A stretch of DNA of 64,000 nucleotides from an uncultured Acidobacteriota bacterium (GTDB taxonomy: Bacteria; Acidobacteriota; Thermoanaerobaculia; Thermoanaerobaculales; Sulfomarinibacteraceae): the NCBI GenBank assembly GCA_963753035.1, contig CAVWAW010000019.1:67152-131151 (forward strand), in the 5' to 3' direction. The first letter of the stretch is position 1. Each line of letters starts with the position of its first letter. Of the stretch, positions 2,697 to 64,000 are shown in pieces. Under the pieces are notes generated by a model, which saw only the letters and a list, made by a program, of their open reading frames with translations, was not told the origin of the DNA and searched no databases. Made by a program: the position numbers and the translations under genes.

Positions 2697-2780
2697 ATGG
2701 TGGTTCAGTTCCCCTGCTATACTGCCAAGGTGCGGCAAGCCTTTCGGATTCAATTTTTTTCTCAGGTTTGAGGAGGAGTC

Positions 2781-4793
2781 ATGGACCACGCCACCGCGTC
2801 ATCGTTTCTGGGAATCTCGGGGGTTGTCTGGTTCTGGGCGCTCACCGTCATCGGCGTCGGCGCCGTGGTGTTTTCACTGAGCCGTCGCTTCAGCGTGCTC
2901 GAGTTGGGTCGGGCGGAGAACCGCTTCAACCGCCTCGGTGAACGGTTCAAACATGTTCTGATCTATGCCTTCGGCCAGAAGAAGATGTTCGACGACCCCT
3001 TTGCGGGGATCTACCACCTCCTGATCTTCTATGGGTTCCTGGTTGTCAGCATCAGGACCGTGACCATGGTGGTCGAGGGTCTCTTCGCGGGCTGGGAGCT
3101 GCCGCTTCTCCACACCGGGGTCGGACACGCCTATCTTTTCTCCAAGGACATCTTCGAGGCGCTGGTGATTCTCGGATTGGTCTTCGCCGTATGGCGGCGT
3201 GGCGTCCAGCGCAAAGACCGGATCATCCAGTCATCCGGCGCCTGGATCGTCATCGGGCTGATCGGCCTTCTCATGGTCACCGATTTGGCCTCGGAAGGAG
3301 CGAGGATCGCGGCCGGTGCGCTCGACGGAGGTTACCTGCCGGTGTCGGCGCTCTTCGGATCGCTCTTTGCCGGTTTCTCAGAAGGCGCCCTGCAGTCGAT
3401 CTACAGCTGGACCTGGTGGATCCATCTCATCACCCTCTATGTGTTTGCCAACGAGCTTCCATACTCGAAGCACTTTCACGTCTATACCTCGATATTCAAC
3501 GTCTTCTTCGCCAACCTCGATCCCCCCGGCAAGTTGCCGACCATGGATCTGGAGAATGTCGACGAGAACACCCGGTTCGGGATCTCGACGATCACCGATT
3601 TCACCTGGAAACAGATGCTCGACATGTACACCTGCACCGAGTGCGGGAGATGTCGCGAGTACTGCCCCACGACCTTGACCGACAAACCCCTGCAACCGGT
3701 GCTGTTCCTCAAATCCGTTCGTGATCAGCTCTACAGCGAGCAGAACGAACTCCTCTCGACCTCCGGTGAGGAAGCCACCGGGTCGCAGCACGAACTGGTC
3801 CCGGTCGTCGTCGATCCCGAGGTCATCTGGGCATGCACCACTTGCCGCTGGTGCGAACGGGCGTGTCCCCTGGACATCAGCTATGTCGACAAACTGGTGG
3901 AGATGAGGCAGAACCTGGTGCTCGAGAAGGCCGAATTTCCTGAAGAGGCGCAGGCCGCCTTCCGCGGGTACGAGGTCAACGGAAACCCGTGGCAGCTTCC
4001 CACCGAGGAACGGGGTAACTGGGCCGACGGTCTCGATATCCCCCTGGCATCCGAAACCGGTGGCGATTTCGAGTATCTGTTCTTTGTCGGTTCCCCGGGC
4101 AGCTATGACGATCACGGAAAGAAAGTGTCGAGGGCGCTCGCGGAGATCCTCAAGGCGGCGGGTGTGAAGATCGCCATTCTGGGCCCAGAAGAGGCATCAA
4201 CCGGCGACGCGGCCCGTCGTCTCGGAAACGAGTATCTCTTCCAGATGCTGGCCATGCAGAACATCGAAGTCATGAATGGCTACGGTGTCAAGAAAATCGT
4301 CACCAACTGCCCGCACGCCTTCAACACCCTGGCCCACGAGTATCCCGATTTCGACGGACACTACGAGGTCGTGCACGGGACCCAGTTGGTGGCCGATCTC
4401 CTCCGGCAGGGCCGGATCAATTTGACCCAGACCGTTGATCTTGATCTCGCCTACCACGACCCCTGCTATCTCGGGCGGACCAATGGTGAGTATGACGCGC
4501 CGAGATTCCTTCTCAGTGAGATTCCGGGACTCAAGGTTCGCGAGGCCGAGCTCAGTCACGATCGCTCCATGTGTTGCGGCGCGGGCGGCGGCCGGATGTG
4601 GCTAGAAGAAGATCTCGGGACCAGGATCAACCAGCTGCGGTTCGACCAACTCCGGGAGAGCGGAACCCCGGAAATCGCCGTCGCCTGTCCCTATTGTTTC
4701 TCCATGCTCTCGGACGCCCAGCGCGAGGGAGGTTTGGAAGACGCACAGACTCTGGACGTGATTGAGTTGGTGGCTCGGTCTCTCGAAGAGTGA
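2781..4793 (+). CDS. Membrane-anchored Fe-S oxidoreductase (NarI/DsrM-like TM domain fused to an HdrD/DsrK-like module)
   Basis: N-terminal multi-TM domain, two ferredoxin motifs (CTECGRCREYCP, CTTCRWCERACP) and two CCG-type Cys-rich regions (CPHAFN, CCGAGGG, ACPYCF). GAGGAGG RBS before the ATG. Confidence 0.85.
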   Translation: MDHATASSFLGISGVVWFWALTVIGVGAVVFSLSRRFSVLELGRAENRFNRLGERFKHVLIYAFGQKKMFDDPFAGIYHLLIFYGFLVVSIRTVTMVVEGLFAGWELPLLHTGVGHAYLFSKDIFEALVILGLVFAVWRRGVQRKDRIIQSSGAWIVIGLIGLLMVTDLASEGARIAAGALDGGYLPVSALFGSLFAGFSEGALQSIYSWTWWIHLITLYVFANELPYSKHFHVYTSIFNVFFANLDPPGKLPTMDLENVDENTRFGISTITDFTWKQMLDMYTCTECGRCREYCPTTLTDKPLQPVLFLKSVRDQLYSEQNELLSTSGEEATGSQHELVPVVVDPEVIWACTTCRWCERACPLDISYVDKLVEMRQNLVLEKAEFPEEAQAAFRGYEVNGNPWQLPTEERGNWADGLDIPLASETGGDFEYLFFVGSPGSYDDHGKKVSRALAEILKAAGVKIAILGPEEASTGDAARRLGNEYLFQMLAMQNIEVMNGYGVKKIVTNCPHAFNTLAHEYPDFDGHYEVVHGTQLVADLLRQGRINLTQTVDLDLAYHDPCYLGRTNGEYDAPRFLLSEIPGLKVREAELSHDRSMCCGAGGGRMWLEEDLGTRINQLRFDQLRESGTPEIAVACPYCFSMLSDAQREGGLEDAQTLDVIELVARSLEE

Positions 4794-8785: not shown

Positions 8786-8950
8786 GGCGTCCCGCCCGCA
8801 GGATCGACTCCTGAATTGGCACCGGCCTTCTGCGCCGGGAGAGCAGACCGCATCGTGCCTCCCGAGGGAGCCCGGCAGCGCTATTGTGCGCAGGGCGTTG
8901 CGTCGCCGGGAGGTCGTTCCGGCACAATAGCGTGCCCGGCACCCCGATGT
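8786..8950 (+). repeat. S-family structured repeat, copy S4 (internal-deletion variant)
   Basis: Shares CACCGGCCTTCTG...CCGGGAGAGCAGACCGCATCG...GGGAGCCCGG...ATTGTGC...GGCACAAT...CCCGGCACCCC with 28631, 53290 and 36513 (rc). Lacks the H1/H2 hairpins, about 110 bp. Confidence 0.8.
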
Positions 8951-8998
8951 GGCGCGGTTTTCTTCGTGTCCTGGTGCGGTCTCGGATACGGATTCGGT

Positions 8999-12629: not shown

Positions 12630-14549
12630 TTACTCCGCGAGCTGATCCTCGATGCTCTGCCACTCTTCCATGAGCTTCTCGGTCTCCTTTTGGAGATCAT
12701 CGCGTTCCTGCTGCATGGCGCGGACCTTCCCCGCGTCGGTGTCCTCGAAGAAGCCCTCGCGGCAGAATGCGGCGTCGATGGCTTCGACACGCGCCTCGGC
12801 CTTTTCGACAGCGGCGGTGACGACCTCGAGTCGCAGGGTGAGGTCTTTTCGCTGTTTCGCTCGGCGTTTTTCGTCGGCGTCAGCGGTCTTGGCACCACGC
12901 GCCCCGGCGGTTTTCTTTTTCTCCCGCTTGGCCCGAAGGGTCGTGGCATCGACATCAAGGTGGTCGTCGCCGCAGTTGGCGAGGTACTCGTCGTAGGTTC
13001 CGGCGTAGTCGTTGAGTCGATCGGGGGTGATCTCGAGGATGCGGGTTGCGAGCTGGGACACGAACCAGCGATCGTGAGCGACAAAAATCAGAGTCCCGTC
13101 GTAGGCCTTCAAAGCCTTGACCAGGGCCTCGATGGCTTCGAGATCGAGGTGGTTTGTCGGTTCGTCGAGGACCAGGACGTTTGGGCGGTCAACGGCGAGC
13201 CGGGCGAAGATCAACCGCGCGGCCTCACCGCCGGAGAGGCTCGAGACCCGTTTCTCGACCTCATCGCCCGAGAAGAGCACCTTGGCGAGCTGGGCGCGGA
13301 CCCAGCCGATGGTCTGGCCGGCACAGGCGGCGCCGAGCCAACCCTCGACGGTGCCTTCTGACTCGGCGAGGAGTTCCCGGTGATCCTGGGCGAAATACCC
13401 GGGAAAGACCTGGTGCCCCCACTCGACGGCGCCGGCATCGGCCTCGAGGTGATCCATGATGATCTTGAGCAGGGTGGACTTGCCGATCCCGTTAGGTCCG
13501 ATCACAGCCAGCCGATCGCCGCGGCGGAGGTTGAGGGACACCCTGTTCAGGACCTTCTTGTCGCCAAAGGACTTGGAGATCCCCTTGATCTCGATGACCT
13601 GCTTGCCGCTCGGGCGTTGCTGCGAGACGGTGAAGACCGGGTAGCGTCTTGAGGATCGCGGAAGCGGTTCGATGACCAGTTTTTCGATCTGCTTGATCTT
13701 GCTCTGAGCCTGCCGGGCCTTGGTGTTTTTGGCCCGAAAACGATCGACAAACGACTGGCGGTTGGCGATCTCCTTCTGCCGTTTGTCGATTTCGGCCTCG
13801 CGACGTTCGCGATCACTGCGTTTGGCCTCGGTGAAGGCGGTGAAGTTCCCGGTGTAGAGGGTGACGGTCTCATAATCGACATCGAGGATGTGGGTGCAGA
13901 CGTTGTTGAGAAAGCGATGATCGTGGGAGATCACCACCGCGCAGCCTGGGAAGTCGAGGAAAAACTTCTCGAGCCACCGAATCGAGAGAATATCGAGGTG
14001 ATTGGTGGGCTCGTCGAGAAAGAGGCAGTCGGGATCGGAGGCCAGGACCCGCGCGAGCAGAACCCGAAGCTTGAATCCACCCGACAGGGTCGAGAGGGGT
14101 TGCCGGTGTTGCTCGGATGGGATCCCGAGACCCTCGAGGATCTCTCCCGATCGGGCCTCGAACGAATAGCCGTCCAGGCTGACCACGATATCCTCGAGCT
14201 CGGCATAGCGGTCGGAGTCGAACTCGGTGTCGGCGTTCTCTAAGATGGCCTCTTTCTCGGTCATGGCCTGCCAGAGCGTTGTGTGACCCATCATCACGAC
14301 ATCGATGATCGGGAGCGCCTCGAATTGGAAATGATCCTGCTCGAGAATACCGAGACGGAGTCTGCGGGGTCGGGAGACCGCGCCGGTGCTGGGCTCATCG
14401 TTCCCCGCGAGCATGCGGAGCAGCGTCGTTTTGCCCGAGCCGTTGGCGCCGACGAGCCCATAGCGTCCGCCGGGGTTGAGCTGAAAGCTCGCACCCTGGA
14501 AGAGGGTTTGGGCGCCGAAGTCCTTGCCGAGGTCGGTTGCAGTAATCAT
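12630..14549 (-). CDS. ABC-F family ATPase (two ABC domains, no TM domain)
   Basis: Two Walker A motifs (GANGSGKTT, GPNGIGKST), two LSGG signatures, an inter-domain linker and a C-terminal coiled coil. The ATG at 14549 is preferred over the GTG at 14567. Confidence 0.9.
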   Translation of the reverse strand: MITATDLGKDFGAQTLFQGASFQLNPGGRYGLVGANGSGKTTLLRMLAGNDEPSTGAVSRPRRLRLGILEQDHFQFEALPIIDVVMMGHTTLWQAMTEKEAILENADTEFDSDRYAELEDIVVSLDGYSFEARSGEILEGLGIPSEQHRQPLSTLSGGFKLRVLLARVLASDPDCLFLDEPTNHLDILSIRWLEKFFLDFPGCAVVISHDHRFLNNVCTHILDVDYETVTLYTGNFTAFTEAKRSDRERREAEIDKRQKEIANRQSFVDRFRAKNTKARQAQSKIKQIEKLVIEPLPRSSRRYPVFTVSQQRPSGKQVIEIKGISKSFGDKKVLNRVSLNLRRGDRLAVIGPNGIGKSTLLKIIMDHLEADAGAVEWGHQVFPGYFAQDHRELLAESEGTVEGWLGAACAGQTIGWVRAQLAKVLFSGDEVEKRVSSLSGGEAARLIFARLAVDRPNVLVLDEPTNHLDLEAIEALVKALKAYDGTLIFVAHDRWFVSQLATRILEITPDRLNDYAGTYDEYLANCGDDHLDVDATTLRAKREKKKTAGARGAKTADADEKRRAKQRKDLTLRLEVVTAAVEKAEARVEAIDAAFCREGFFEDTDAGKVRAMQQERDDLQKETEKLMEEWQSIEDQLAE

Positions 14550-14567
14550 CGCCGGGGGAGGATACAC

Positions 14568-14602
14568 GATGCAGGATGCAGGATGCAGGATTCAGGATGC
14601 AG
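14568..14602. repeat. Heptamer micro-array (GATGCAG)x4 plus GATTCAG
   Basis: GATGCAGGATGCAGGATGCAGGATTCAGGATGCAG lies just upstream of the ABC-F start. It is near-inverted relative to the array at 12595. Confidence 0.8.
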
Positions 14603-14653
14603 GCACATGCCATGCGTCTCAGGAGGGACCGCGGTATGATGTGAGATCAGTTC

Positions 14654-16992: not shown

Positions 16993-17033
16993 GGGTGGGA
17001 ATGATACTCGATACGAGATCCGAGATGCAGGAT

Positions 17034-18263
17034 TCAGTCCGCCAGCCGATCCCAAATCTCCGCCATGCCTTCGTGGTGATCGGCGAAGAGACGCTGCAGA
17101 TCCGGATCGAGGTGGCCTTCCGGATCCATCCTTTCGTCACCCTCGAGGATGATCTTGCGCGCCTGGTCGTGACTGAACCCGGCCTTGTACGGGCGTGCCG
17201 AGCGGAGCGCATCGTAGATGTCCGCCAGGGCGACGATCCGCGCCTCAATGGGGATCTCCTCGCCCTGCCGCCCGTTGGGATACCCGGTTCCGTCCCAGCG
17301 CTCGTGGTGGCCGAAAGCGATGGCCGCCGCCATCTGGAGCCGGTCCGAAGATTCGAGGATCTGATAGCCGAAGTAGGGGTGCCGGTTCATCTCGGCCCGT
17401 TCGTCATCGTCGAGCGGCCCATTCTTGCGGAGGACCATCCCGTCCACGCTCATCTTGCCGACATCGTGGAGCTGAGCCGAGTATCGGATCTCGTCGCAGA
17501 ATATCGTGGGCATCCCGCACGTCTGGGCGATGAAGTAGGAATACTCATTGACCCGCAGGACATGGGACGCGGTGGCAGTGTCGTGGACCTCGGCTGCACG
17601 AGCGAGGAGGTTGATGGAGAGTTGGAACGCCTCTTCGGTTTCCTCGTGCAGGGCGGCGATCTTCGCCCTCTGCTCGGCCAGGGTCTTGTTGCGATCGCGA
17701 AGCCTGACGTTCTGCGCCTTGATTCGCCCGAGCATCTCGGCACGTTCGATGGCGCTGCCGACGATGTGGTTGACCGGGACGATAAGGCCCGCCTGCTCTT
17801 CACCAAATTCCAGCGGTCGATCGACCCCGTCGGTTCTCCGATTGATGAGCTGGACCACGCCAACGACGTTGCGGTCGTAGTTGAGCAGCGGAAAGGAAAG
17901 CATGGAACGGCTGTGATACCCGTGCCGCTTGTCGAATCGGCGATCAAACGTGTAGGGGACGCTGAGGGGAAGATCATAAAGATCCTCGACGAAAACGGTC
18001 TCTCCGGTGGTGGCGGTGAATCCGGCGATGGAGGAGGGGGTCATGGGTACGACGAACGAAGCGGGTTTCACGGCGATGACGTCATTCTGCGAGTCAGCCG
18101 CCTCGAGCCGCCGGCTGCGCCCGCGACCGCGGACGATGAAGATCGTGCCGGCTTCCGCCCCCGTGAGTTCGCGGCTCTTGAGGAGCACGCGGTGCATCAG
18201 CTTTTCGACGGACTCCGGCTTCGACGACTCGATGAACTCGAGGAATTCTCTGAGTGCGTCCAT
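17034..18263 (-). CDS. GAF-domain HD-GYP c-di-GMP phosphodiesterase
   Basis: HDVGK and HHERWDGTGYPNG motifs with an N-terminal GAF-like domain. Start at 18263 has a GGAGA RBS. Confidence 0.85.
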   Translation of the reverse strand: MDALREFLEFIESSKPESVEKLMHRVLLKSRELTGAEAGTIFIVRGRGRSRRLEAADSQNDVIAVKPASFVVPMTPSSIAGFTATTGETVFVEDLYDLPLSVPYTFDRRFDKRHGYHSRSMLSFPLLNYDRNVVGVVQLINRRTDGVDRPLEFGEEQAGLIVPVNHIVGSAIERAEMLGRIKAQNVRLRDRNKTLAEQRAKIAALHEETEEAFQLSINLLARAAEVHDTATASHVLRVNEYSYFIAQTCGMPTIFCDEIRYSAQLHDVGKMSVDGMVLRKNGPLDDDERAEMNRHPYFGYQILESSDRLQMAAAIAFGHHERWDGTGYPNGRQGEEIPIEARIVALADIYDALRSARPYKAGFSHDQARKIILEGDERMDPEGHLDPDLQRLFADHHEGMAEIWDRLAD

Positions 18264-18319
18264 GGTCGGCCAGATCTCCTTCCGGGTGTGACGGCTTCGA
18301 CATGATACAGAATCGTGAG

Positions 18320-18930
18320 GTCGTCGCAGGGTTGAACCGCCAAGACGCAAGAGTCGCAAAGCATCGCAGAAAACAACGCAGAGACGCAGAGGCGCAGAGA
18401 CGCAGAGGTCGGGTCCATCGGTGACGACGGTGTTTTCGTGTTCATCGTCGCCAGCCGGCCGGTCGGTTGCCCTCGTCCAAGGGCCGAGGACCCATGATTC
18501 GAGGTTTCCGAATCAGAAACGCGGCATTTCTGATTCGGAAACCTCGAATCATGGATCGCGCCTACGGCACGACCGCCCGGCCTCCGAGACGTGAATGGTG
18601 TCGTTTCGTCTCAGGGCATCCATTGAAGCCGATGGTGGACGGCCTACATATCTCAAGAATGTGGACAAGGAGCGAGACCCAGGTGGAGCCGACGCGCCGT
18701 AGGCGCGGCGTGCCTGTGAATTGTCTGGGCTGGACGAACGCTGGCGGGCGGATCGCCCAGACAATTCGCAGGTGGTGGCGGTCCGACCGACACCGACTCC
18801 ACCGCCATCATCGGCTGCGATGGATTGCGATGTCTCTGCGCCTCTGCGCCTCTGCGTTATTTATTGCGATGGCGCGACGTTGCGATGACCTCGCGTCCCT
18901 TGCGTCCTTGCGGTTCAAGAGTGATGTTCC
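18320..18930 (+). repeat. E600 element copy A: ORF-less, hairpin-rich element of about 600 bp with long inverted arms (MITE-like or ncRNA)
   Basis: Left arm GTTGAACCGCCAAGACGCAAG...(CGCAGAGR)x4 at 18331-18408. Mirrored right arm ending CTTGCGTCCTTGCGGTTCAAG at 18828-18919. Alignable by eye to 60792-61398 (rc) and 63509-end. Boundaries +/-15 bp. Confidence 0.8.
18493..18553. other. Perfect 27-bp stem / 7-nt loop hairpin (E600 H1)
   Basis: CATGATTCGAGGTTTCCGAATCAGAAA cgcggca TTTCTGATTCGGAAACCTCGAATCATG. Confidence 0.95.
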
Positions 18931-28478: not shown

Positions 28479-28630
28479 TCGATTGTCTCCATGCTGAGAA
28501 ATTCCGCCTTGGCGGAGTGCGTATGGTACCGGATTCTCGGGAGCGTTGGCCACCCCCGCCGGCGCTTTGGGTGGTGTAGCGACAGCCATCCTGGCTGTCG
28601 ACGGTGACGTGCCAGCGCACTGTCGCCGTC

Positions 28631-28890
28631 CCGGAACCTGCGTTCATCCCCGGCCTTCTGGGCCGCTGTGACGTTGTCCCAGCCGACCAGCGTCGCGCCA
28701 TCGGCGTGGTCGCACGTCGGTTGATTTAGAGGGCTGCGACCACGCCGATGGCACGCCGGCGGCCTGCTTCGTAGCCGGGAGAGCAGACCGCATCGCGCTC
28801 CCCTAGGGAGCCCGGTTGGACATTGTGCGAGGAGCGCCGCGATGCCTGGAGGCCGATCCGGCACAATGTCGAACCCGGCACCCCGGTGGA
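28631..28890 (+). repeat. S-family structured repeat, copy S1 (about 260 bp, four hairpins)
   Basis: Near-identical blocks with 53290-53550 and rc of 36513-36780. A 17-bp stem 28697-28713/28736-28752 and a 10-bp stem GACATTGTGC/GCACAATGTC 28819-28828/28861-28870. Confidence 0.85.
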
Positions 28891-28979
28891 GCGGGATTCT
28901 CCGCGTGCCCTGGACGGCTCCGGGCGCTGCCACGGACCCGCATGGTAGACTCCGTCCGTTTCAGGAGGGTGTTGCACAG

Positions 28980-32995: not shown

Positions 32996-33120
32996 CTCCT
33001 GCGACGACTTCGTGCAACCTTCGTGGATTTGTGTCTTCGTGTTTGCGACGGTGTGATGTCTCTGTGATCCATTTGCGATGTCTGCGATGCTTTGCGTCCC
33101 TTGCGCCCTGGCGATTCAAC
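32996..33120. repeat. Solo E600-type arm (CGCA/GTG word array ending GGCGATTCAAC)
   Basis: GCGATGTCTGCGATGCTTTGCGTCCCTTGCGCCCTGGCGATTCAAC resembles the right arms at 18828-18919, 61300-61386 and 42770-42826. Confidence 0.6.
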
Positions 33121-33191
33121 TTCGCTCCGAGAAACGCGCTAGAATACGCCGCATCGCCGTCCGGGCGATTCCGACCACTGGAGCCCCGAAA

Positions 33192-36032: not shown

Positions 36033-36280
36033 GCGCCTTCTGGCGGGTTGTTGCCTATCCGGCCCGCCTCTACAAGAGGTTCATTTCACCCTATATGCCC
36101 CCGGCGTGCCGGTTCGAACCGACCTGTTCGGTCTATGCAGCCGAGGCCATCGAGAGCCACGGGCTCTACGGCGTCTGGTTGGCGGTGGTGCGGATCCTCA
36201 AGTGCCAGCCGTTCCATTCGGGTGGCTACGATCCCGTGCCGCCCCGGAAGGGTGATATGGGTTCGACGCCATCGGATTGA
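36029..36280 (+). CDS. yidD: Membrane protein insertion efficiency factor YidD
   Basis: [31 protein letters not shown]...[13 protein letters not shown]. The GTG start overlaps the ileS stop (GTGA). Confidence 0.85.
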
Positions 36281-36297
36281 GCCGCTCGGGCGCGAGG

Positions 36298-36359
36298 ACA
36301 TCGCAATCATCGCAATTCAACGCAGAGGCGCAAAGTCGCAGAGGCGCAGAGACATCGCA
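36298..36359. repeat. Solo E600-type arm (CATCGCA / CGCAGAGG words)
   Basis: ACATCGCAATCATCGCAATTCAACGCAGAGGCGCAAAGTCGCAGAGGCGCAGAGACATCGCA. Confidence 0.6.
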
Positions 36360-36462
36360 TTTGAGAGTGGGCGAGGTGTTGCGTGGAGGCCGTCAGACAA
36401 CGTGGTGGCGCGCCTCCGAGCGGGAGGAGTCTGTAGGTGGGCCCAGGCCCACCCTACGTGCT
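36359..36462 (+). repeat. Q module (contains a GTAGGTGGGCCCAGGCCCACCCTAC hairpin)
   Basis: Alignable by eye to rc of 44202-44305. Shared blocks are CGTAGGGTGGGCCTGGGCCCACCT and CCACTCTCAAATG. Confidence 0.65.
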
Positions 36463-36512: not shown

Positions 36513-36780
36513 CCCCATCGGGCGTGCCGGGTTTGACATTGTGCCGGAACGACCACACGGCCCCGCGTCGCTCCCCGCACAATGTCATACCGGGCTCCCC
36601 CGGGGAGCGCGATGCGGTTTGCTGTTCCGGCTCCGAGGCAGGCCGCCGGCGTGCCATCGGCGTGGTCGCAGCCCTCACAATCAACCTACGCGCGACCACG
36701 CCGATGGTGCGACGCTGGGTCGCTGGGACGCCAAAGCGTCACAGCGGCCCAGAAGGCCGGTGACGAGATCAGCGTCCGGG
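36513..36780 (-). repeat. S-family structured repeat, copy S3 (inverted)
   Basis: The rc aligns block for block with S1 and S2, including the GCCATCGGCGTGGTCGC/GCGACCACGCCGATGGC stem and the GACATTGTGCCGG/CCGCACAATGTC stem. Confidence 0.85.
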
Positions 36781-36833
36781 GCAGCGTCAGGATCAACATC
36801 AGTTGACAGCCGGACGGGAGTGGGCGACTGTTC

Positions 36834-36926
36834 GCTGCCGCTGCCGCTGCCGCTGCCGCTGCCGCTGCCGCTGCCGCTGCCGCTGCCGCTGCCGCTGCCG
36901 CCGCTGCCGCCGCCGCTGCCGCTGCC
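36834..36926. repeat. Hexanucleotide microsatellite (GCTGCC)n
   Basis: About 11 perfect GCTGCC units, then degenerate GCC/GCTGCC units. Ends 8 nt from the stop of the 36934-38913 gene. Confidence 0.95.
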
Positions 36927-36933
36927 CCGGCCG

Positions 36934-38913
36934 TCAGTCGCGCTTCGGGGGGTACTCCAACCCGTACTCGGCGAGGATCGCCGCCGCGAGGTTTTTGAGC
37001 TCGGTGGCCTCTTTCTTCAGCGGCCTCGAGGTCAGGAGGATCCCCGGGACGCTTTCGTGATCCATGCAATGGTCACCGCTCCAACGGTCGGTGTTGTCGG
37101 TGAGGACCTGCGGAAGGATCTCGCCGATGGCCGACTCGTCAGATCCCCGGGTTCCCCTGGCGTAGCCGACCTGGATGTCGGGTCCGATGTGGAGATAGCC
37201 GCCGTCGGTGTAGGTCGCCTCGCGGAGATAGACCTTGGAGATCGCGGGTTTGCCGGTTGTGGGATCGATCACCCGACGGAGTTTGTCGGAAACCTCCGCA
37301 AGGAGGCGATCCCGATCTTTAGGATCGACGATGCCGCCCTTTTCCCGACCGCTGAGATTGAGATAGAGGCCGTTGATGCCGAGGCCATAGGCGCGGGTCT
37401 TGGACCAGTCGACGTTTGAGTAGTACTCACCGGCTTTGTCGGGATCCTTGAGTGAAAGGTAACCGTTCTCCTTGAGCCAGGTGTTGAGGTGGAACGCGCG
37501 CCGCCATGGTGAGAATCCGTGATCGGACATCACCACCAGGAGGGTGTCTTCGGGCATGTGCTCCAGGGTGTAGCCCACAACCTTGTCCATCTTCTCGTAG
37601 AGTTCGGGCATAACCCCCGCGTACTTGGGATCTATTTCGGGGTCGTAGGCCGGGTGGTCGGGGTCCATGGCCCGCCAGATGATGTGCCCGACCAGGTCGG
37701 TGTTGCCGAAATAGTGGAAGAGCAGACCCTCGTCGAACTCATCGAGGACGAACTTGAATTGTTCAATGTTCTCATCGCCGGCGATCTTTGCCTGGGCGAG
37801 GAACTCATCGACTGTCAGGACCCCTGCCTTGGCCGCCCCGGTGTCCTCCGGCATGCCCTGGGTGAAGAAATAGCCCGTGCACTTGCACAAATGCTTGGCA
37901 TAGGAGTTCGGGGTCGAGATCGGCATGATCGGGGCCGTCGGGTCGATGTTGAGCGGTGAAACATAGAGTTCGAAGTGGGGTTTCACCGCACGCAAATAGA
38001 AACGGGCGATGGCCGGGAGCGCCTGGGTCGGGATCAGTTCGAAGGAAACGGGGACCCACTCGCTCCAGCCTCCCGCCTCGAGAATGAACGCCTCGTCCCC
38101 GATGACGAACTTCGCGGCGTTGGTCTGTTCATCGACATAGACCGTCATCTCTGCGGACACCCGGGTGGGCTTGAGGAGGAACGGATTGTCGGGTCCGAGG
38201 AGCCTTGCGTCGATCCGCCCGTTCCTGGCTTCCACTTGAAAGACATCACCGCCGTTGACGCTCTCGGTGCCGGGAGCGAACGGGTCGGAGGTGTAGAGAG
38301 AAAAAGTCCCGTAGGTGCCCAGTACATCGGGCGTCCCCATCCCGCTCAATTCACGCCCGGCGGTGCCGGACGGGGGAAAATTCGCCGGCATTTTGATGAT
38401 GGTTGTCGGAACTCCGTGTTCTTCGAGAACCGTCCAGAACGAGTTTCCTTTCCGCAGGAGTTCGACCGAGCCGGGGTCGAAGAACGAAGGGATCTGCCAT
38501 TTCCCGAGACTCCACATGGTTCCCGGTCTGGCGATACTGGTCGACAGGTACGGCGTCATGGTTTTCGGGTCGCGGTGGATGAAATCAAAAATCCCGTGGC
38601 CTCCGGCATCGGTCCCGGAAATGAAGTCCGACCAGGCAACCGGGCTCTGAGGTGGGATGGAAGTGCCGAGGGAAGCAAACCCCCCTGAATCGGCTAGTTT
38701 CTTGAACGACGGCAACCGGCCCGCCTCGATCATCTTGGCCGTCAATTCATAGTCCATGCCGTCAAAGCCGAGGATGATCACATTCGGTTTGTCGCTGCCG
38801 CCGTTTTCGCCTTCAACTACATCGGCCTGGAGTGGAAGACCGACTCCGAGCGCGAGAATGGCGAGCAGTGCCAGTGACAACAGAGCGAGTGTCAGTTTCA
38901 AAGGGGTTCGCAT
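36934..38913 (-). CDS. Secreted alkaline-phosphatase-family protein (type I phosphodiesterase/nucleotide pyrophosphatase-like)
   Basis: Signal peptide. NVIILGFDGMDYE metal site. IPPQSPVAWSDFISGTDAGGHGIFDF nucleophile region. VVMSDHGF. Confidence 0.8.
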   Translation of the reverse strand: MRTPLKLTLALLSLALLAILALGVGLPLQADVVEGENGGSDKPNVIILGFDGMDYELTAKMIEAGRLPSFKKLADSGGFASLGTSIPPQSPVAWSDFISGTDAGGHGIFDFIHRDPKTMTPYLSTSIARPGTMWSLGKWQIPSFFDPGSVELLRKGNSFWTVLEEHGVPTTIIKMPANFPPSGTAGRELSGMGTPDVLGTYGTFSLYTSDPFAPGTESVNGGDVFQVEARNGRIDARLLGPDNPFLLKPTRVSAEMTVYVDEQTNAAKFVIGDEAFILEAGGWSEWVPVSFELIPTQALPAIARFYLRAVKPHFELYVSPLNIDPTAPIMPISTPNSYAKHLCKCTGYFFTQGMPEDTGAAKAGVLTVDEFLAQAKIAGDENIEQFKFVLDEFDEGLLFHYFGNTDLVGHIIWRAMDPDHPAYDPEIDPKYAGVMPELYEKMDKVVGYTLEHMPEDTLLVVMSDHGFSPWRRAFHLNTWLKENGYLSLKDPDKAGEYYSNVDWSKTRAYGLGINGLYLNLSGREKGGIVDPKDRDRLLAEVSDKLRRVIDPTTGKPAISKVYLREATYTDGGYLHIGPDIQVGYARGTRGSDESAIGEILPQVLTDNTDRWSGDHCMDHESVPGILLTSRPLKKEATELKNLAAAILAEYGLEYPPKRD

Positions 38914-42662: not shown

Positions 42663-42830
42663 ACCAGGATGAACCGCAAGGGCGCAATGGACACTAGGCA
42701 TCGCAACGTCGCAAACACGAAGACGCGAAGACGCGAAGATATCGCACACCAAGACATCGCGATCATTGGCTGCGATGTCTGCGATGTCTGCGATGCGTTG
42801 CGTCCCTTGCGTCCTTGCGGTTCAACTCTA
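42663..42830. repeat. Mini-E600: left and right arms abutted, with no internal region
   Basis: GAACCGCAAGGGCGCAATGG...(CGCGAAGA)x2... mirrored by ...GCGATGTCTGCGATGTCTGCGATGCGTTGCGTCCCTTGCGTCCTTGCGGTTCAAC. The right end is 1 nt from the TAG of the 42828 gene. Confidence 0.75.
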
Positions 42831-44201: not shown

Positions 44202-44305
44202 CGTAGGGTGGGCCTGGGCCCACCTTCAGGTCCAATCCGGTTGGAAAAACGCCGCCACGAAGTCAGCCAACGTCCACGCTGCGTCCGATCCACTCTCAAA
44301 TGTGA
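44202..44305 (-). repeat. Q module, inverted copy
   Basis: CGTAGGGTGGGCCTGGGCCCACCTTCAGG...CCACTCTCAAATGTGATGTCT aligns with rc of 36359-36462. Confidence 0.65.
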
Positions 44306-44445
44306 TGTCTTGGCGCTTCTTTGCGATGGATGATCTTTGTGATTCAACCCTGCGATGTTGCGACGTATCTGCGGCAATCTGCGTCATCTGCGGGCAACCT
44401 GCGATGGCGCGATGGAATCCGTGTCCATCTGTGTGATCAGTGGGT
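44299..44445. repeat. Solo E600-type arm, CGCAGAT/CTGCGAT word variant
   Basis: ...GATTCAACCCTGCGATGTTGCGACGTATCTGCGGCAATCTGCGTCATCTGCGGGCAACCTGCGATGGCGCGATGGAATCCGTGTCCATCTGTGTGATC. The rc aligns with 53196-53275. Confidence 0.6.
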
Positions 44446-45805: not shown

Positions 45806-45918
45806 CGTCGATCTCCTCCCTCGTTGGCACGATGGGTGCCGAATGAGTATACGGGGGCTTCGATGACGGGTTTGGACGAATACGGGTAGGATGAGAGGTC
45901 AAGTGTGAATTATGAATT

Positions 45919-46030
45919 CGGAGTGAGGAGTGAGGAGTGAGGAGTGAGGAGTGAGGTAGTCAGAAGGTGGGGACGTCGCTCCGTTTTACCTCCTAACCTT
46001 CTAACTTTCTGACCTTCTAACCTCCTCACC
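45919..46030. repeat. GTGAGG-word palindrome G1
   Basis: (GAGTGAG)x5 GTAGTCAGAAGGTGG ... CCTCCTAACCTTCTAACTTTCTGACCTTCTAACCTCCTCACCCC. The arms are imperfect reverse complements. Confidence 0.75.
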
Positions 46031-53195: not shown

Positions 53196-53275
53196 GCAGA
53201 GAGGCAGCCCACAGATCACACGGATAAACACAGATGACATCGCATTCCATCGCAGATTGCCCGCAGATGCCGCTG
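53196..53275. repeat. Solo E600-type arm, CACAGAT/CGCAGAT word variant
   Basis: CCCACAGATCACACGGATAAACACAGATGACATCGCATTCCATCGCAGATTGCCCGCAGATGCCGC aligns with rc of 44340-44440. Confidence 0.6.
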
Positions 53276-53289
53276 CTGCGGTCACGGTC

Positions 53290-53550
53290 ACGGAACCTGC
53301 CCTCATCGCCGGCCTTCTGGACCGCTGGGACGTTGTCCCAGCGGTCCAGCGTCGTGCCATCGGCGTGGTCGCTCGTGGGTTGATTGTGAGGGCTGCGACC
53401 ACGCCGATGGCACGCCGGCGGCCTGCCTCGTTGCCGGGAGAGCAGACCGCATCGCGCTCCCCGCGGGAGCCCGGTTAGAGATTGTGCGGGGAGCGCCGCG
53501 AAGCCTGGAGGTCGATCCGGCACAATGTCAAACCCGGCACGCCCGGTGGA
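53290..53550 (+). repeat. S-family structured repeat, copy S2
   Basis: Perfect 13-bp hairpin 53319-53347 (GGACCGCTGGGAC gtt GTCCCAGCGGTCC) and a 20-bp stem 53353-53372/53395-53414. Blocks shared with S1, S3 and S4. Confidence 0.85.
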
Positions 53551-53590
53551 GGCGCGGTCCGCGGGTTCTGTAGAGGTCGTGGGTACGGTC

Positions 53591-53657
53591 GCTGCCGCTG
53601 CCGCTGCCGCTGCCGCTGCTGCTGCTGCTGCTGCCACTGCCACTGTCACGGTCACGG
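53591..53657. repeat. Hexamer/trimer microsatellite (GCTGCC)4 (GCT)5 (GCCACT)2 GTCACGGTCACGG
   Basis: Directly readable. Ends 26 nt upstream of the ATG at 53683. GGTCACGGTCACGG also occurs at 53280-53293, on the other side of S2. Confidence 0.9.
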
Positions 53658-53682
53658 GGTGGGGAGCCGCTACACTGTTCCG

Positions 53683-55285: not shown

Positions 55286-55420
55286 GTGAGAGGTCAGGAG
55301 TGAGGAGTTAGGGGTCAAGGGTTAGGGGGTTACGATTTCTCCCCACCCCTCACCCCTCACCCCTCACCCCTCACTCCTCACTCCTCTTCACGTCTCACAT
55401 TCTCACCTTTTCACGTTCTC
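55286..55420. repeat. GTGAGG-word palindrome G3
   Basis: GTGAGAGGTCAGGAGTGAGGAGTTAGGGGTCAAGGGTTAGGGGG ttacgatttct CCCCACCCCTCACCCCTCACCCCTCACCCCTCACTCCTCACTCCTC.... Starts 4 nt after the traB/gumN stop. Confidence 0.8.
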
Positions 55421-59543: not shown

Positions 59544-60791
59544 ATGAGAACAGCGATCGTTGCGGCGATCGGGGCGCTCCTCGTCGGTCCGGCGACGCCG
59601 TTCGCGAAATCCGACACCGATCGGCTGCACTACTTCGCGGTCAACGGCAGCGGTGTTCTGAGCTCGGCCAAGGCCGATCTGCCGGTGAACCCGGCGTCGG
59701 TGGTCAAAATCGCAACGACGTTGTGGGCCCTCGCTGAACTCGAGGCCGGTCATCGCTTCACCACCTCGATCGGGTATCTCGGAAGCTGGGACCCATCCTC
59801 GGGCGTTTTGGTCGGCGATCTTGTGATCCGCGGAGGGGACGACCCGGATTTCCAGTGGGAAAACGCCTTCCTCGTGGCGCGTGAGCTCAACCGGCTCGGC
59901 CTGCGCCGAGTGGAGGGCCGGGTTCTGGTTCAGGGACGATTCTGGCTTGGCTGGGAGCACGGGGTGGAAAAACGGGTGACCGATCCGACCCAATTGGCTG
60001 AGAAGATGGGCCGCAGGCTCATCGGCACCCTGGATCCGGTCAGGTGGACCCGCTCCCAGCTCAATACCTGGAAGGCGCTGTGCGAGCGGCGTGGTTGGGA
60101 CATCACGCGCAGGCCGCAGGTGAAAGTCACCGGAGGGGCGCGTTTTGACACGCTGCGCGACGCAACGCCGATGCTCGTCCACCGCTCGAACCCACTCGAA
60201 GTCATCATGCGGCGCTTCAACGTCTACTCCAACAACGACATCGTCCGAGTGGCGGACGGGATCGGCACGCTGGACGAGTTCGAGGCCTTCGTCACCCGGC
60301 GTCTCGGTGTCGAACCGGGTCGGATCGAGCTCGAGACGGCGTCGGGTGAGCGCCGCAACCGGATGACCGTGCAGCAGATGGCGGGTCTTCTGACCGAGCT
60401 CGATATCGAGGCCGAAGAACAGGGGCTCGAGGTCCAGAAGTTGCTGCCCGTTCTCGGCTGCGACCCCGGCCACACAAGACGGATGTTTCCCGCTTTGGCC
60501 GAGCCCGAGTTCGCGGGGGCGGTGACCTGCAAGACGGGGACCTTGACCCATACCGATGGCGGGGTGGCGGTCCTGGCGGGGATCTTCACCAGTCCGACCA
60601 ACGGACCGGTGGTCTTCGCCATCGCCGCGCCCGGGGCCGGCGGTAAGCTCGACTACTGGCGGATGATCCAACAGCGGTGGATCCTCGACCTCATCGCCGA
60701 GTCGGGCGGGGCGGTGACGACACCCTGCGGCGATCCGCTGCCGTTCTCCGACACCTTCGCCGAGATCGAGGTCGTCGCCGGCGGAGAATAA
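59544..60791 (+). CDS. dacB: D-alanyl-D-alanine carboxypeptidase/endopeptidase, PBP4 (S13) family
   Basis: SxxK (PASVVK), SxN (YSNND) and KTG (CKTGTL) motifs, plus GDLVIRGGDDPDF. Trimmed to the Met at 59544. Confidence 0.85.
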   Translation: MRTAIVAAIGALLVGPATPFAKSDTDRLHYFAVNGSGVLSSAKADLPVNPASVVKIATTLWALAELEAGHRFTTSIGYLGSWDPSSGVLVGDLVIRGGDDPDFQWENAFLVARELNRLGLRRVEGRVLVQGRFWLGWEHGVEKRVTDPTQLAEKMGRRLIGTLDPVRWTRSQLNTWKALCERRGWDITRRPQVKVTGGARFDTLRDATPMLVHRSNPLEVIMRRFNVYSNNDIVRVADGIGTLDEFEAFVTRRLGVEPGRIELETASGERRNRMTVQQMAGLLTELDIEAEEQGLEVQKLLPVLGCDPGHTRRMFPALAEPEFAGAVTCKTGTLTHTDGGVAVLAGIFTSPTNGPVVFAIAAPGAGGKLDYWRMIQQRWILDLIAESGGAVTTPCGDPLPFSDTFAEIEVVAGGE

Positions 60792-61398
60792 CGCAGAGCC
60801 GCAGAGGCGCAGAGACATCGCACATCGCAGTTTCACCGCAAAGACGCCAGGAACGCCAAGACCATCGCAACCGATGATCGCGGTGGAGTCGGTGTCGGTC
60901 GGACCGCCACCACTGCTGCTTCATGTGCTCGCATCGAACGCGGCGTTCGTGACGAGCACATGAAGCAGCAGCTCGCCGCGCCTACGGCGCGCCGGCTCCG
61001 CCTGGGTTTCGCTCTCCATCAACTCTATCCAAATGAGGGACCTCGATCTGGAGGAGATCCAATACCCAAGAAGCTGTGGAGGCAGGATGGTCGTGCTGAA
61101 AGCACGATCCGAGACTCGTGAGATCAGATTCCGAAACGCCGCGCTTCGGAATCTGATCTCACGGGTCTTGGGTCCTCGGCCCCGGGACGAGGGCCACCGT
61201 CCGGCCGGTTGACGATCACGAACACGGTTTGGCCGAGGTCGGTACCGGGCCCGATCCGTGTTCATCCACCGAATCAGTGACCATCCGTGTCCCATTGCGA
61301 TGATGCGATGTCTCTGCGTCTCCGCGTCTCTGCGTCTCTGCGTTGAACTGCGATGTCTTGGCGATCTTGGCGTCGTTGCGGTTCAACCCGTGATGTGA
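60792..61398 (-). repeat. E600 element copy B (inverted relative to copy A)
   Basis: Begins right after the dacB stop with CGCAGAGCCGCAGAGGCGCAGAGACATCGCA. The right arm ends GTTGCGGTTCAAC at 61386. Hairpins at 60913-60971 (19-bp stem) and 61113-61167 (23-bp stem). Confidence 0.8.
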
Positions 61399-61408
61399 CG
61401 GCGCTGAG

Positions 61409-62425
61409 CTATGCCACGCACCAGAAGGTATTGCCTTCGTCGAGGTCGAGTTCGACCAGCCGCGTTCTGATAAGGTTCCTCGCTCCCCGTGACGCCACCG
61501 CCGCGATGACGACGGTGTCGCCGTCGAGATGCGCGGGGAGATCATCGGGCGAGATCACGTTGATCCTCCGCAGGGTGCCGCCGATTTTTCTCGGGTCGAT
61601 GTCCACGACTGCGGCGATCTCGACACCCTCCTCCATGAGAAATTTGGACAGCCTCCGGCCGGTCTGGCCGGCGCCCCAGAGAATGACCTTTGAGAAAGAA
61701 GCCAAGGGACCGCGGGCGAGAAAATGAGCTTTGCAGCGCAGGAAGCTCGGCACCGAGTAGCGGGTGTCGGTGCGGGTGAGTCGATCGTCGTGCTCCCGCC
61801 AGAAGAAGAGCGGACGATCGATCTTTTCGAAGATCACACCGGCCGCGAAACAACGCAGCCAGAGGTCGTAGTCTTCGGCCCATCCCGGATCACGCCAACC
61901 ACCGATCTCGGTGAGGACCTCGCGGCGAACCATCACCGACGGGTGGGCGACGGGTGATTCGATGAACCGCTCGCGTTTGATCTCGTCATGGGTCACGAGC
62001 GAATTCAACCATTCCTCGTAGAGGCGGAAGCCCATGGCCACGCAGCGCGACGGAAAATGGCGCACCAGGCAGGACACGACTCCGACCTCGGGCTGGTCGG
62101 CGAAACGGGCGGCCTGGAGTTCGAGCCGTTTCGGATGGCTGATGTCATCGGCGTCCATCCTCGCCACCAGCGGCGCCCGGCAGTGTTCGAAACCGCGATT
62201 GAGAGCGGCGACCAGCCCCTCGGCCGGTTGGTGAACCACGGTAAAACGTGGGTCCCGATCCGCCCAGGTATCGAGGAGAGCCCCGCTGTCATCGTCGGAT
62301 CCGTCGTCCACGGCGATGACCTCGAAGTCGGTCAGCGACTGGTGGGCCAGGCTGGCGAGACCGGCCTCGAGCCACCGGCCGCCGTTGCGAACCGGGAGGA
62401 GCACGGAAACCATCGGGGTAGTCAT
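61409..62425 (-). CDS. Family 2 glycosyltransferase with a C-terminal Rossmann-like domain
   Basis: VSVLLPVRNG, VIAVDDGSDD and the DxD motif in RMDADDIS. The C-terminus has VILWGAGQTGRRL. Trimmed to the Met at 62425. Confidence 0.8.
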   Translation of the reverse strand: MTTPMVSVLLPVRNGGRWLEAGLASLAHQSLTDFEVIAVDDGSDDDSGALLDTWADRDPRFTVVHQPAEGLVAALNRGFEHCRAPLVARMDADDISHPKRLELQAARFADQPEVGVVSCLVRHFPSRCVAMGFRLYEEWLNSLVTHDEIKRERFIESPVAHPSVMVRREVLTEIGGWRDPGWAEDYDLWLRCFAAGVIFEKIDRPLFFWREHDDRLTRTDTRYSVPSFLRCKAHFLARGPLASFSKVILWGAGQTGRRLSKFLMEEGVEIAAVVDIDPRKIGGTLRRINVISPDDLPAHLDGDTVVIAAVASRGARNLIRTRLVELDLDEGNTFWCVA

Positions 62426-62466
62426 GGCGCACCGACTATAGCGCCGGCCCGCGCAACTGTGGTTCA

Positions 62467-63507
62467 ATGGCCCGCCGAACAATGCTGTATCCACTTTCCC
62501 GCGCCGCCCTCTTCAAGCTCGAGCCCGAGACCGCCCACGCCGTATCTCTCGCCGCCATCGCCAAAGCGGGAGCCGTGCCTCCCGTGCGGGCAGCACTTGC
62601 CGCGTGTTTCTGTGTGCCCGATGCCGAACCGGTCGAGGCCTTCGGGTTGACCTTTCCAAACCGGGTCGGGCTTGCCGCCGGTTATGACAAGGATGGCGAA
62701 GGATGGCGTGGTCTGGCCACCCTGGGCTTCGGCCACGTCGAAGTTGGGACGGTGACTCCGCTGCCACAGCCGGGAAACCCGAAACCGCGGGTCTTCCGTT
62801 TGGTCGACCGGCGGTCGGTGATCAACAGAATGGGATTCCCGGGACGCGGCGCGGCCTATGTCGCCGATCAGCTTCGCAAACCCGGTCCGCCCGGGCTGAT
62901 TCTCGGGGTCAACATCGGCAAACAAAAGGACACCGCCCTCGAGGATGCGGCGGGCGACTACGAAGAACTCATGGAGGTCTTCGCCCCGTTGGCCGATTAC
63001 CTCGCCGTCAACATCTCGTCGCCCAATACCCCCGGGCTGAGGCAGCTCCAGGAACGGTCGTTCCTCGGCGCGCTGCTCGGTCGACTCGCCGCCAAACAGG
63101 CTTTGCTGGCGGATGGGACCGGAAAACGGGTGCCGGTACTGGTCAAACTCGCGCCCGATCTCGATCCCGACCAGCTCCGGACGGCTGTCGACTGCGTGGT
63201 CGAATCGGGGCTCGACGGGATCATCGCCACCAACACGACGATCTCGAGAGACGGTGTCGATGGGCATCCTCTATCCTTCGAGGAGGGTGGGCTCAGTGGT
63301 GCGACCCTCACCGAGATGAGCACCCGGATCATCGCCGCCATCGCCGAGCACCTCGACGGAGCACTGCCCATCATCGGTGTCGGGGGCATCATGTCTCCCG
63401 ATGACGCGCGCGCCAAGCTCGACGCCGGCGCCACCCTGTTGCAGGTCTACACCGGGATGATCTACGAGGGCCCCGGTCTGGTGAAGCGGATCCTCAAGGC
63501 GCTCTGA
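62467..63507 (+). CDS. pyrD: Dihydroorotate dehydrogenase (quinone), class 2
   Basis: FPNRVGLAAGYDKDG, NISSPNTPGLR, IIATNTT and GVGGI. The start could be the Met at 62482. Confidence 0.95.
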   Translation: MARRTMLYPLSRAALFKLEPETAHAVSLAAIAKAGAVPPVRAALAACFCVPDAEPVEAFGLTFPNRVGLAAGYDKDGEGWRGLATLGFGHVEVGTVTPLPQPGNPKPRVFRLVDRRSVINRMGFPGRGAAYVADQLRKPGPPGLILGVNIGKQKDTALEDAAGDYEELMEVFAPLADYLAVNISSPNTPGLRQLQERSFLGALLGRLAAKQALLADGTGKRVPVLVKLAPDLDPDQLRTAVDCVVESGLDGIIATNTTISRDGVDGHPLSFEEGGLSGATLTEMSTRIIAAIAEHLDGALPIIGVGGIMSPDDARAKLDAGATLLQVYTGMIYEGPGLVKRILKAL

Positions 63508-63508
63508 A

Positions 63509-64000
63509 TCCATCGCAGGGTCGAACCGCAAATACGCGAAGTTCGCAAAGCATCGCTGCGTCGCACCATCGCAAAGATCTAACGCAGAGACGCAGAGACG
63601 CAGAGACATCGCACCATCGCAATGGGACACGGATCGACACGGATGTGGCGGATCGGCACGGATCGGGCCCAGTTCCAATCTCGGCTAACTCGGTCTCGGG
63701 GTCGTCAACCGGCCGGACGGTTGCCCTCGTCCAAGGGCCGAGGACCCATGACCCGTGAGATCCGATTTCCAAACGCGGCGCTTGAAAATCGGATCTCACG
63801 GGTCATGGATCGTACCTACGGCACGACCGTCCGGCCTCCAGAGATTGAGGGGGCAGGTCCGACGCTGCCAGAAATCTGTCGCCCCGTCAGAGAATTTGGG
63901 ATGGGTTCAATAGTACTTTTCGCCTACCTCAGCGTCAGCCCTATTCGATCGGGAGTCGAACCCCAGTACAGATAGAGCGCCTTGCCCGAAATCAACTCGG
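63509..64000 (+). repeat. E600 element copy C (same orientation as A; truncated by the window edge)
   Basis: Left arm GGTCGAACCGCAAATACGCGAAG...(CGCAGAGA)x3 follows the pyrD stop. The hairpin at 63747-63807 has a stem of about 26 bp. Flanking blocks are shared with copies A and B. Confidence 0.8.

Follow-up and report, generated by a model that had tools for sequence, protein, structure and literature searches.

The E600 sequences analyzed in the current study most probably (at about 0.7) represent an old, decaying, MITE-like family of dispersed repeats, non-coding, heavily structured and 600–750 nt long, from a narrow lineage of Acidobacteriota. Three copies (A, B and C), in both orientations, lie in the window, i.e. 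the whole 64,000-nt stretch of DNA that was analyzed. An E600 copy was shown to be an inverted pair of homologous half-units with a short linker between them at the centre. Such a pair forms a large quasi-palindrome, and the segment that the first-pass annotation had described as a hypervariable cassette in a conserved scaffold is the central spacer of the element, a loosely constrained stretch at the symmetry centre of a two-armed palindrome.

Distribution of E600

About 25 E600 copies or fragments were recovered from related Acidobacteriota, in three named MAGs and several metagenome contigs. A core-pattern scan of one genome per species detected eight copies in three uncultured Acidobacteriota MAGs, and a metagenome scan detected nine further copies. 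The search for PyrD homologues (best match 94% identity) gave orthologous loci; more distant pyrD relatives carry the labels Thermoanaerobaculales or Holophagae. For comparison 23 loci (L001–L023) were fetched, with Microflora Danica and JGI samples as the source of L001–L021, and the window and these loci together amount to about 215 kb.

The conserved blocks of E600 were not found in viral contigs, which were scanned twice. Rfam 15 likewise gave no match at gathering thresholds, only generic miRNA-hairpin noise being returned at E values up to 10, and the literature on MITEs of Acidobacteria yielded nothing specific. The longest open frames change strand and frame from copy to copy, i.e. there is no conserved ORF, and the indels have lengths that are not in multiples of three.

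Architecture of the half-units

The outer part of each half-unit is a terminal array, composed of words with an 8-nt period and ending in TTGAACCGC; a spacer separates it from a domain of 137 nt. Four helices make up this domain: its closing stem, a small hairpin that is conserved, a long hairpin whose sequence varies, and a second small hairpin, which has CCTACGG in its loop. The end arrays are 100–180 nt long and are built of the 8-nt words ACGCAAGG, ACGAAGAC, ACGCAGAG and ATCGCAxx, together with CACGGAT at a period of 10–11 nt. The termini are sharp (TTGAACCGC on the left, GCGGTTCAA on the right), and the flanks outside them are diverse. The parts of copies A and B in the window are as follows.

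18332..18918, plus strand: copy A, complete, with termini TTGAACCGC (18332) and GCGGTTCAA (18918)
18449-18585: left domain of copy A
18586..18669, plus strand: linker of copy A ("cassette A"), A-type, ~82-84 nt; aligns with the linkers of L021, L020, L004a, L018 and L013 (z 5.7-18)
~18670-18806: right domain of copy A
60785..61386, minus strand: copy B, the outer right array being cut short where it enters the end of the peptidase S13 gene
61078-61214: left domain of copy B
61015..61077, minus strand: linker of copy B ("cassette B"), B-type, ~63-65 nt; aligns with the linkers of L007, L006, L011a and L001 (z 10-18)
60874-61005: right domain of copy B

The two ends of an element are complementary: in copy A, 18362-18401 and 18832-18871 are 90% complementary, and blastn of left arrays against reverse-complemented right arrays gave 71–83% identity over 77–106 nt. 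The homology of the halves extends to the domains. The left domain measures exactly 137 nt in 16 of 18 copies, and a covariance model (R1) was built from the 18 left domains, read on the minus strand of the element. This model found 12 right domains at full model length, on the plus strand of the element only (33–59 bits, E 2.5e-9 to 3.5e-4), and in the 11 right domains that were aligned to it, 40–46 of the 54 modelled pairs are Watson-Crick. In copy B the model scored 149.1 bits on the left domain and 52.8 bits, on the opposite strand, on the right domain. The cross-matches between halves given by nhmmer were weak, and all were colinear and on opposite strands; the halves are equal in length, and CGAACGCGGCGTTCG, at the hairpin apex, and CGYGCCTACGGCRCG, a small hairpin, are present in both. 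A plain blastn test for a dimer recovered only the terminal repeats and a small hairpin of 24–27 nt, the covariance model being needed for the homology of the halves.

Arrays of the E600 type also occur in other contexts, as solo ends or around different cores (window 33002-33125, 36270-36460 and 44202-44420; L012:4487-4928). One of the different cores, in the window, is a GTAGGTGGGCCCAGGCCCACC core; another, ~240 nt long and unrelated, is found in L012 (4487-4928). A mini element at 42670-42825 of the window has E600-type arrays of 8-nt words and no core. These arrays are a shell common to several repeat families.

Other repeats were also seen. A separate family of ~260 nt (87–90% identity, both orientations; window 8827-8975, 28620-28913, 36515-36790 and 53274-53572) adjoins long (GCTGCC)n hexamer arrays (36818-36963, 53557-53678 and 1444-1572). 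Tandem heptamer arrays, (GATGCAG)n and (GGAGTGA)n, lie at 14541-14626 and 16997-17054, and at 45909-45970 and 55286-55384, respectively; the (GGAGTGA)n array forms an inverted pair 9.4 kb apart that is 92% complementary. The heptamer arrays may be the ends of further repeat families.

The central linker

The first-pass annotation described conserved blocks on both sides of the supposed cassette. On the upstream side this description held: the block following the long hairpin H1, ATGGATCG..CCTACGGCACGACCG.CCGGCCTCC, is common to A and C, with the variant GGATCGTGCTTTCAGCACGACC in B. On the downstream side all three copies were said to converge again. Copies A and B do so at GAGCGARACCCAGG (18670-18683 and 61001-61014, 0 mismatches) and are conserved for ~41 nt from there on, and copy C does not. 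The small hairpins named in the annotation are also present, GAGACG..CGTCTC in A and GATCT-CCTCC-AGATC in B.

The segments of A, B and C had been reported as non-alignable, which is correct for pairwise comparisons among the three (z -0.6 to 1.1), but A and B each align with the linkers of other copies. The linkers measured in 11 further copies can be sorted into two alignable classes, between which L003 forms a bridge, and the cassette is therefore not hypervariable. The A-type linker (~82 nt) is found in A, L004a, L018, L021, L020, L013 and L015, most pairs giving z 6–24, and the B-type linker (~65 nt) in B, L006, L007, L011a and L001 (z 6–18); the linkers of A and B compared with each other gave z of about -0.5. 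By eye, the classes have the first ~25 nt and the last ~15 nt in common and are set apart by an indel of ~20 nt in the middle. The supposed cassettes of A and B are thus members of alignable classes, an outcome that the annotation had itself named as speaking against its cassette, and that of C is unrelated sequence.

The linker is the least conserved segment of E600. Mean pairwise identity along the element was 0.92 for X1, 0.76 for H1, 0.88 for the first small-hairpin block, 0.41 for the linker, 0.88 for the second block, 0.58 for H2 and 0.92 for X2. Deletions, nested insertions and exchange cluster in or beside the linker. Four deletion derivatives (L009, L014, L019 and L017) kept both termini, and in L009 and L014 one deletion endpoint is inside the linker. 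L005 is cut just after H1 and runs into a gene, and L002 is without H1 and the following block. A nested repeat of ~260 nt sits in the linker of L016, ~65 extra nt were found in L004b, and L008 has ~500 nt of another repeat family ending exactly at the boundary of linker and right domain. This other family, with ends like GGCGGTGCTCAGAATGACAG, was seen nested in the E600 copies of relatives (L008:4395-4900; L016:7940-8200 and 2729-3089; L011:494), and no copy of it was found in the window.

Exchange between copies, for which a comparison of flanks and cassettes had been proposed, is indicated by mosaics. Copy B and L015 are alike in both long hairpins (H1 0.90, H2 0.92) and have linkers of different classes (0.48), the linker of L015 resembles that of L013 (0.80), and H2 of L013 resembles H2 of A (0.84). 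The suggestion of a recombination hotspot inside a MITE was largely supported: the central position, the deletion endpoints, the insertions and the mosaics speak for a hotspot of recombination and indels in a MITE-like element. It is at the palindrome centre that E600 copies are broken, receive nested repeats and swap parts.

Copy C and its tail

Copy C was shown to consist of the left half only, which about 12 nt into the linker (~63852) is joined to unrelated DNA. As had been reported, it directly follows pyrD, in the orientation of A: the stop codon TGA occupies 63505-63507, similarity to the family begins at 63508-63511, and the array starts 1 nt past the stop.

63508..63660, plus strand: left terminal array of copy C, with 8-nt periodic words ATCGCA, ACGCAGAG and CACGGAT (spacing 8)
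63661..63702, plus strand: spacer between array and domain, GATCGGGCCC...GTCGTCAA
63703..63839, minus strand: left domain of copy C, 137 nt, with closing stem, X1 hairpin, H1 and small CCTACGG-loop hairpin
63840..63851, plus strand: stub of the central linker, AGAGATTG.., the last family-alignable sequence (nhmmer matches end at 63851-63852)
63852..64000, no strand assigned: tail of copy C, unrelated to E600, comprising the earlier "cassette C" and supposed downstream block, and cut by the window edge

The array contains the terminus variant TCGAACCGC (63521-63529), and H1 spans 63748-63806. When the window was searched with nhmmer, a profile of A and B matched copy C at 63511-63852 (E 1.2e-74) and a six-copy profile at 63493-63851 (E 1.1e-79). 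The covariance model matched 63703-63839 with 159.8 bits (E 1e-29) on the minus strand and 71.6 bits on the plus strand. HMM and covariance-model matches stop at 63839-63852.

Contrary to the first-pass annotation, copy C does not rejoin a conserved downstream block. The sequence taken for this block, GAGTCGAACCCCAG (~63954-63967), agrees without gaps at 9 of 14 positions. A search for the block at up to 3 mismatches gave 19 matches where 21 were expected by chance, and GAGTCGAACCCCAG of C was not included among them; the supposed block in C is a chance match. The block GGAGCCGRCGCGCCGTAGGCGYGGCG, which was kept in all full copies, is absent from C, as is the conserved continuation GGAGCCGRCGCGCCGTAGGCG. 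The tail (63844-64000) had no relative in the window or in L001–L023 by blastn at word size 7 or by nhmmer --max, it had no match among plasmids, and against every linker it scored z 3.5 or less.

In L008, L009 and L010 (94% identical PyrD) an element is present after pyrD, and its likeness to the window ends at 63838. Beyond that position L009 has the beginning of a B-type linker, directly followed by a right terminal array ending in CTTGCGGTTCAAG and then by TerC; the full-length version of the post-pyrD element is found in L011. Since the orthologous copies lack the window sequence from ~63852 on, that sequence lies outside the ancestral element. The tail is probably inserted DNA or a rearrangement junction, and it would have come about by insertion into the palindrome centre or by breakage and rearrangement there.

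It is possible, though not the favored account, that C is an intact copy with an element nested in its linker and a right half (GAGCGAAACCCAGG..H2..GGCGGTCCGACC..GCGGTTCAA) that resumes past 64000; this would replace the truncation and nothing else. The ~260-nt nested repeat at the same position in L016 and the ~65 extra nt in L004b are precedents, as is the L008 orthologue of B, with its ~500 nt of foreign repeat that ends at the linker/right-domain boundary, and the composition of the tail (~52% GC by eye, no convincing coding frame) is compatible with it. However, the tail resembles neither those nested repeats nor any other sequence compared, and true truncations, e.g. L005, also exist.

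Two further readings of the tail were rejected. Its sole open frame has a GC3 of ~0.5 (hand count) compared to 0.73–0.91 in accepted neighboring ORFs, and for a tRNA or att remnant ARAGORN reported 0 genes, Rfam showed no tRNA or tmRNA, and folding by hand was negative. A T-arm-like motif, GGGGTTCGACTCCC, was noticed on the minus strand at 63953-63966 of the window; its stem is mismatched, no anticodon stem accompanies it, and any such gene would be cut by the window edge.

Genomic context and age

According to the ORF calls, the neighboring genes are convergent in 8 of the 9 copies for which both neighbors were called, and the TerC neighbor seen in L009 and L022 adds the loci of C and L019, bringing the count to 10 of 11. 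In most copies the termini are -23 to +54 nt from stop codons, and they abut or overlap both stops (e.g. window 18291-18332, 60785-60791, 61386-61409 and 63507-63508; L004, L005, L006, L011 and L015). The neighbors encode peptidase S13, glycosyltransferase 2, PyrD, TerC and topoisomerase I.

All relatives examined, down to 85% PyrD identity, have something of E600 after pyrD, be it a complete copy, a copy with deletions, a mini element of 75 nt or no more than a remnant. The mini element (L022:2506-2583) consists of terminal arrays only, and L012:7027-7090 and L023:4027-4110 are decayed remnants; these sites show the long-term decay of one ancient insertion by internal deletion. The orthologue of the copy A locus (L014) is occupied too. 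Identity between orthologous elements was 0.85–0.86, compared to 0.83 at the fourfold-degenerate sites of pyrD. E600 would be evolving near the neutral rate and decaying by internal deletion, and it may have been kept where it is harmless, between convergent genes.

Neither a clean empty site nor an insertion polymorphism was found at the two loci with orthologues (post-pyrD and A/L014), and mobility of E600 is therefore inferred only. The family would have spread as a non-autonomous mobile element that is now old. Among the window and loci (~215 kb) there was no transposase or autonomous partner. An ORF between two termini in L005, considered as a candidate autonomous element, is a peptidase M50 with a CBS domain. 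No direct repeat of 2–9 nt flanks A, L007, L011a, L016 or L018; the copies being old, target duplications could have decayed.

Copies B (minus) and C (plus) form inverted repeats around the glycosyltransferase gene and pyrD (window 60785-63851; 265 nt, 82%). At L011:1173-4345 (93% PyrD identity) the glycosyltransferase-pyrD block is inverted relative to a block of peptidase S13, FAD-binding, adh and HDAC genes, and the two element copies of L011 are the reciprocal hybrids expected of a crossover in the left arrays. The segment enclosed by the inverted pair B and C therefore has the opposite orientation in a close relative.

Base pairing and strand bias

The replaceable stems proposed in the first-pass annotation reflect real compensatory variation. 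In the left domain 97.3% of the cells are paired, compared to 30–46% in slid controls, and both sides have changed in 21 of the 54 pairs, a value reached by 0 of 500 shuffles. Compared to shuffled controls, the folding energies of both strands are far lower (z -3 to -12).

The two strands are not equivalent. On the minus strand of the element the left domain has G·U in 64 cells (23 pair positions) versus C·A in 6 cells (5 positions), counts taken over copies that are not phylogenetically independent; for H1 alone the counts are 30 and 6. In H2 the bias is mirrored, the plus strand having 17 G·U versus 2 C·A, and the right domains aligned to the model gave 35 versus 18. Canonical pairs in the left domain amount to 97.3% on one strand versus 91.3% on the other, and for the whole core the RNAalifold energy is -133 kcal/mol on one strand versus -112 kcal/mol on the other. 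In either half the better-paired strand is the one that runs from the centre outwards. An RNA of a single polarity over the whole core was rejected, H1 favoring the minus strand and H2 the plus strand; since the favored strand differs between the halves, a single RNA across scaffold and cassette is disfavored. Pairing in the hairpins may owe its persistence to selection on a single-stranded form, to correction of one palindrome arm with the other as template, or to both.

The first-pass annotation compared E600 to a programmable RNA with a conserved scaffold and a replaceable cassette. On this reading E600 would encode a guide-type RNA with a targeting cassette, and C would carry a third specificity. 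The comparison drew on a poorly conserved segment between structured conserved blocks, as in the guide-RNA scaffolds of IscB/TnpB (omega RNA), IS110 (bridge RNA) and CRISPR (crRNA/tracrRNA), and the compensatory variation of the stems and the mutually non-alignable cassettes of A and B fit it. It is nevertheless largely refuted, and we regard it as highly improbable. Copies of different genomes have the same two recurring cassette classes, with homologous ends, and the "cassette" of C is unrelated DNA that has no scaffold after it and is absent from orthologous copies. The neighbors are housekeeping genes, with no nuclease or recombinase and no adjacent effector gene of the guide-RNA kind at the loci examined. 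The lack of an Rfam match, the switch of the better-paired strand between the halves and the near-neutral divergence of orthologous copies also speak against it.

The mirrored G·U bias is less easily accommodated by the MITE-like reading. A selfish-repeat model does not account for it, and it is a hint that each half has a single-stranded form specific to one strand; the strand-biased G·U pairs point to a folded single-strand function outside that model. Further points against the MITE-like reading are the fixed 137-nt length of the domain and the conservation of X1 and X2 (0.92), which is higher between paralogues than a plain MITE would need.

These features suggest another reading, namely that the half-unit is a functional module placed at the 3' ends of genes that converge, either a structured, strand-specific RNA or a site in single-stranded DNA that is folded. 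It might define the 3' end of RNAs or stabilize them, in both directions when the mirrored pair is considered; it might give rise to antisense transcripts that begin in the linker and run outwards; or it might be the end of a transposon, recognized as a folded 3' strand. The linker would then be merely a spacer or promoter region, and E600 would be more than junk DNA. The domain length kept in 16 of 18 copies, the conservation of X1 and X2 between old paralogues, the strong covariation (21 pairs) and the mirrored bias of about 10 to 1 (64 versus 6, and 17 versus 2 in H2), with its difference in canonical pairs, all favor such a module, as do the position of 10 of 11 copies between convergent genes, abutting stop codons, and the RNAalifold energies of the two strands of the core.

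On balance, however, a functional module is unlikely. A scan of copy B for promoters and terminators found none, with 0 terminator-like sites in 60700-61450, and in copies A and B no T run follows the E600 domains, as an intrinsic (bidirectional) terminator would have. Orthologous copies have diverged at about the neutral rate, a domain or hairpin has been lost without purging in L002, L009, L014, L017 and L019, and the G·U and C·A counts are from copies that are not phylogenetically independent. The MITE-like repeat remains the preferred reading.

Relation to known repeat classes

Bacterial MITEs, such as the Correia elements of Neisseria and Nezha of cyanobacteria, are small, non-coding, multi-copy, intergenic elements with terminal inverted repeats. 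E600 is likewise small and without coding capacity, and has terminal inverted repeats with defined termini; it also resembles these MITEs in folding into long hairpins, in its deletion derivatives that keep the ends and in promoting rearrangements. It differs from them in that no target duplication or cognate transposase was found, its ends are 100–180 nt arrays of 8-nt words, its internal blocks are more conserved than its ends, and all copies look old.

REPINs and BIMEs are doublets of REP palindromes mobilized by RAYT transposases, for which a folded single-stranded form may matter. E600, too, has two inverted homologous palindromic units and a spacer, as the opposite-strand matches of model R1 show, and it resembles REPINs and BIMEs in its inverted homologous structured units, its poorly conserved spacer, the occurrence of singlets and doublets and its location between convergent genes. 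However, its units are ~300 nt long compared to 20–40 nt, there is no GTAG or CGTC tag, and no RAYT (IS200-like) gene was seen near E600 copies in the window and loci.

The foldback transposons of eukaryotes have long terminal inverted repeats of short tandem subrepeats and a middle that is variable or absent, as in E600. This likeness is one of architecture, homology not being expected, and we know of no bacterial counterpart of these transposons. Integron attC sites are hairpins of conserved structure and variable sequence that fold in a strand-specific manner as single strands. The hairpins of E600 are similar in being conserved in structure, variable in sequence and strand-specific in folding, but no integrase, R/L box consensus or cassette array was found, and they lie within a larger four-helix domain.

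The current analysis removes a false lead: E600 has no programmable cassette, and what had been called "cassette C" is DNA unrelated to the element. E600 is an undescribed, highly structured repeat family that shapes the genomes of uncultured Acidobacteriota. Should the mirrored strand bias have a functional basis, the four-helix domain of 137 nt would represent a new motif of structured RNA or of single-stranded DNA. Functional half-units, if real, would give E600 the rank of a new class among the large structured elements of Acidobacteriota, with mirrored modules placed between convergent genes.
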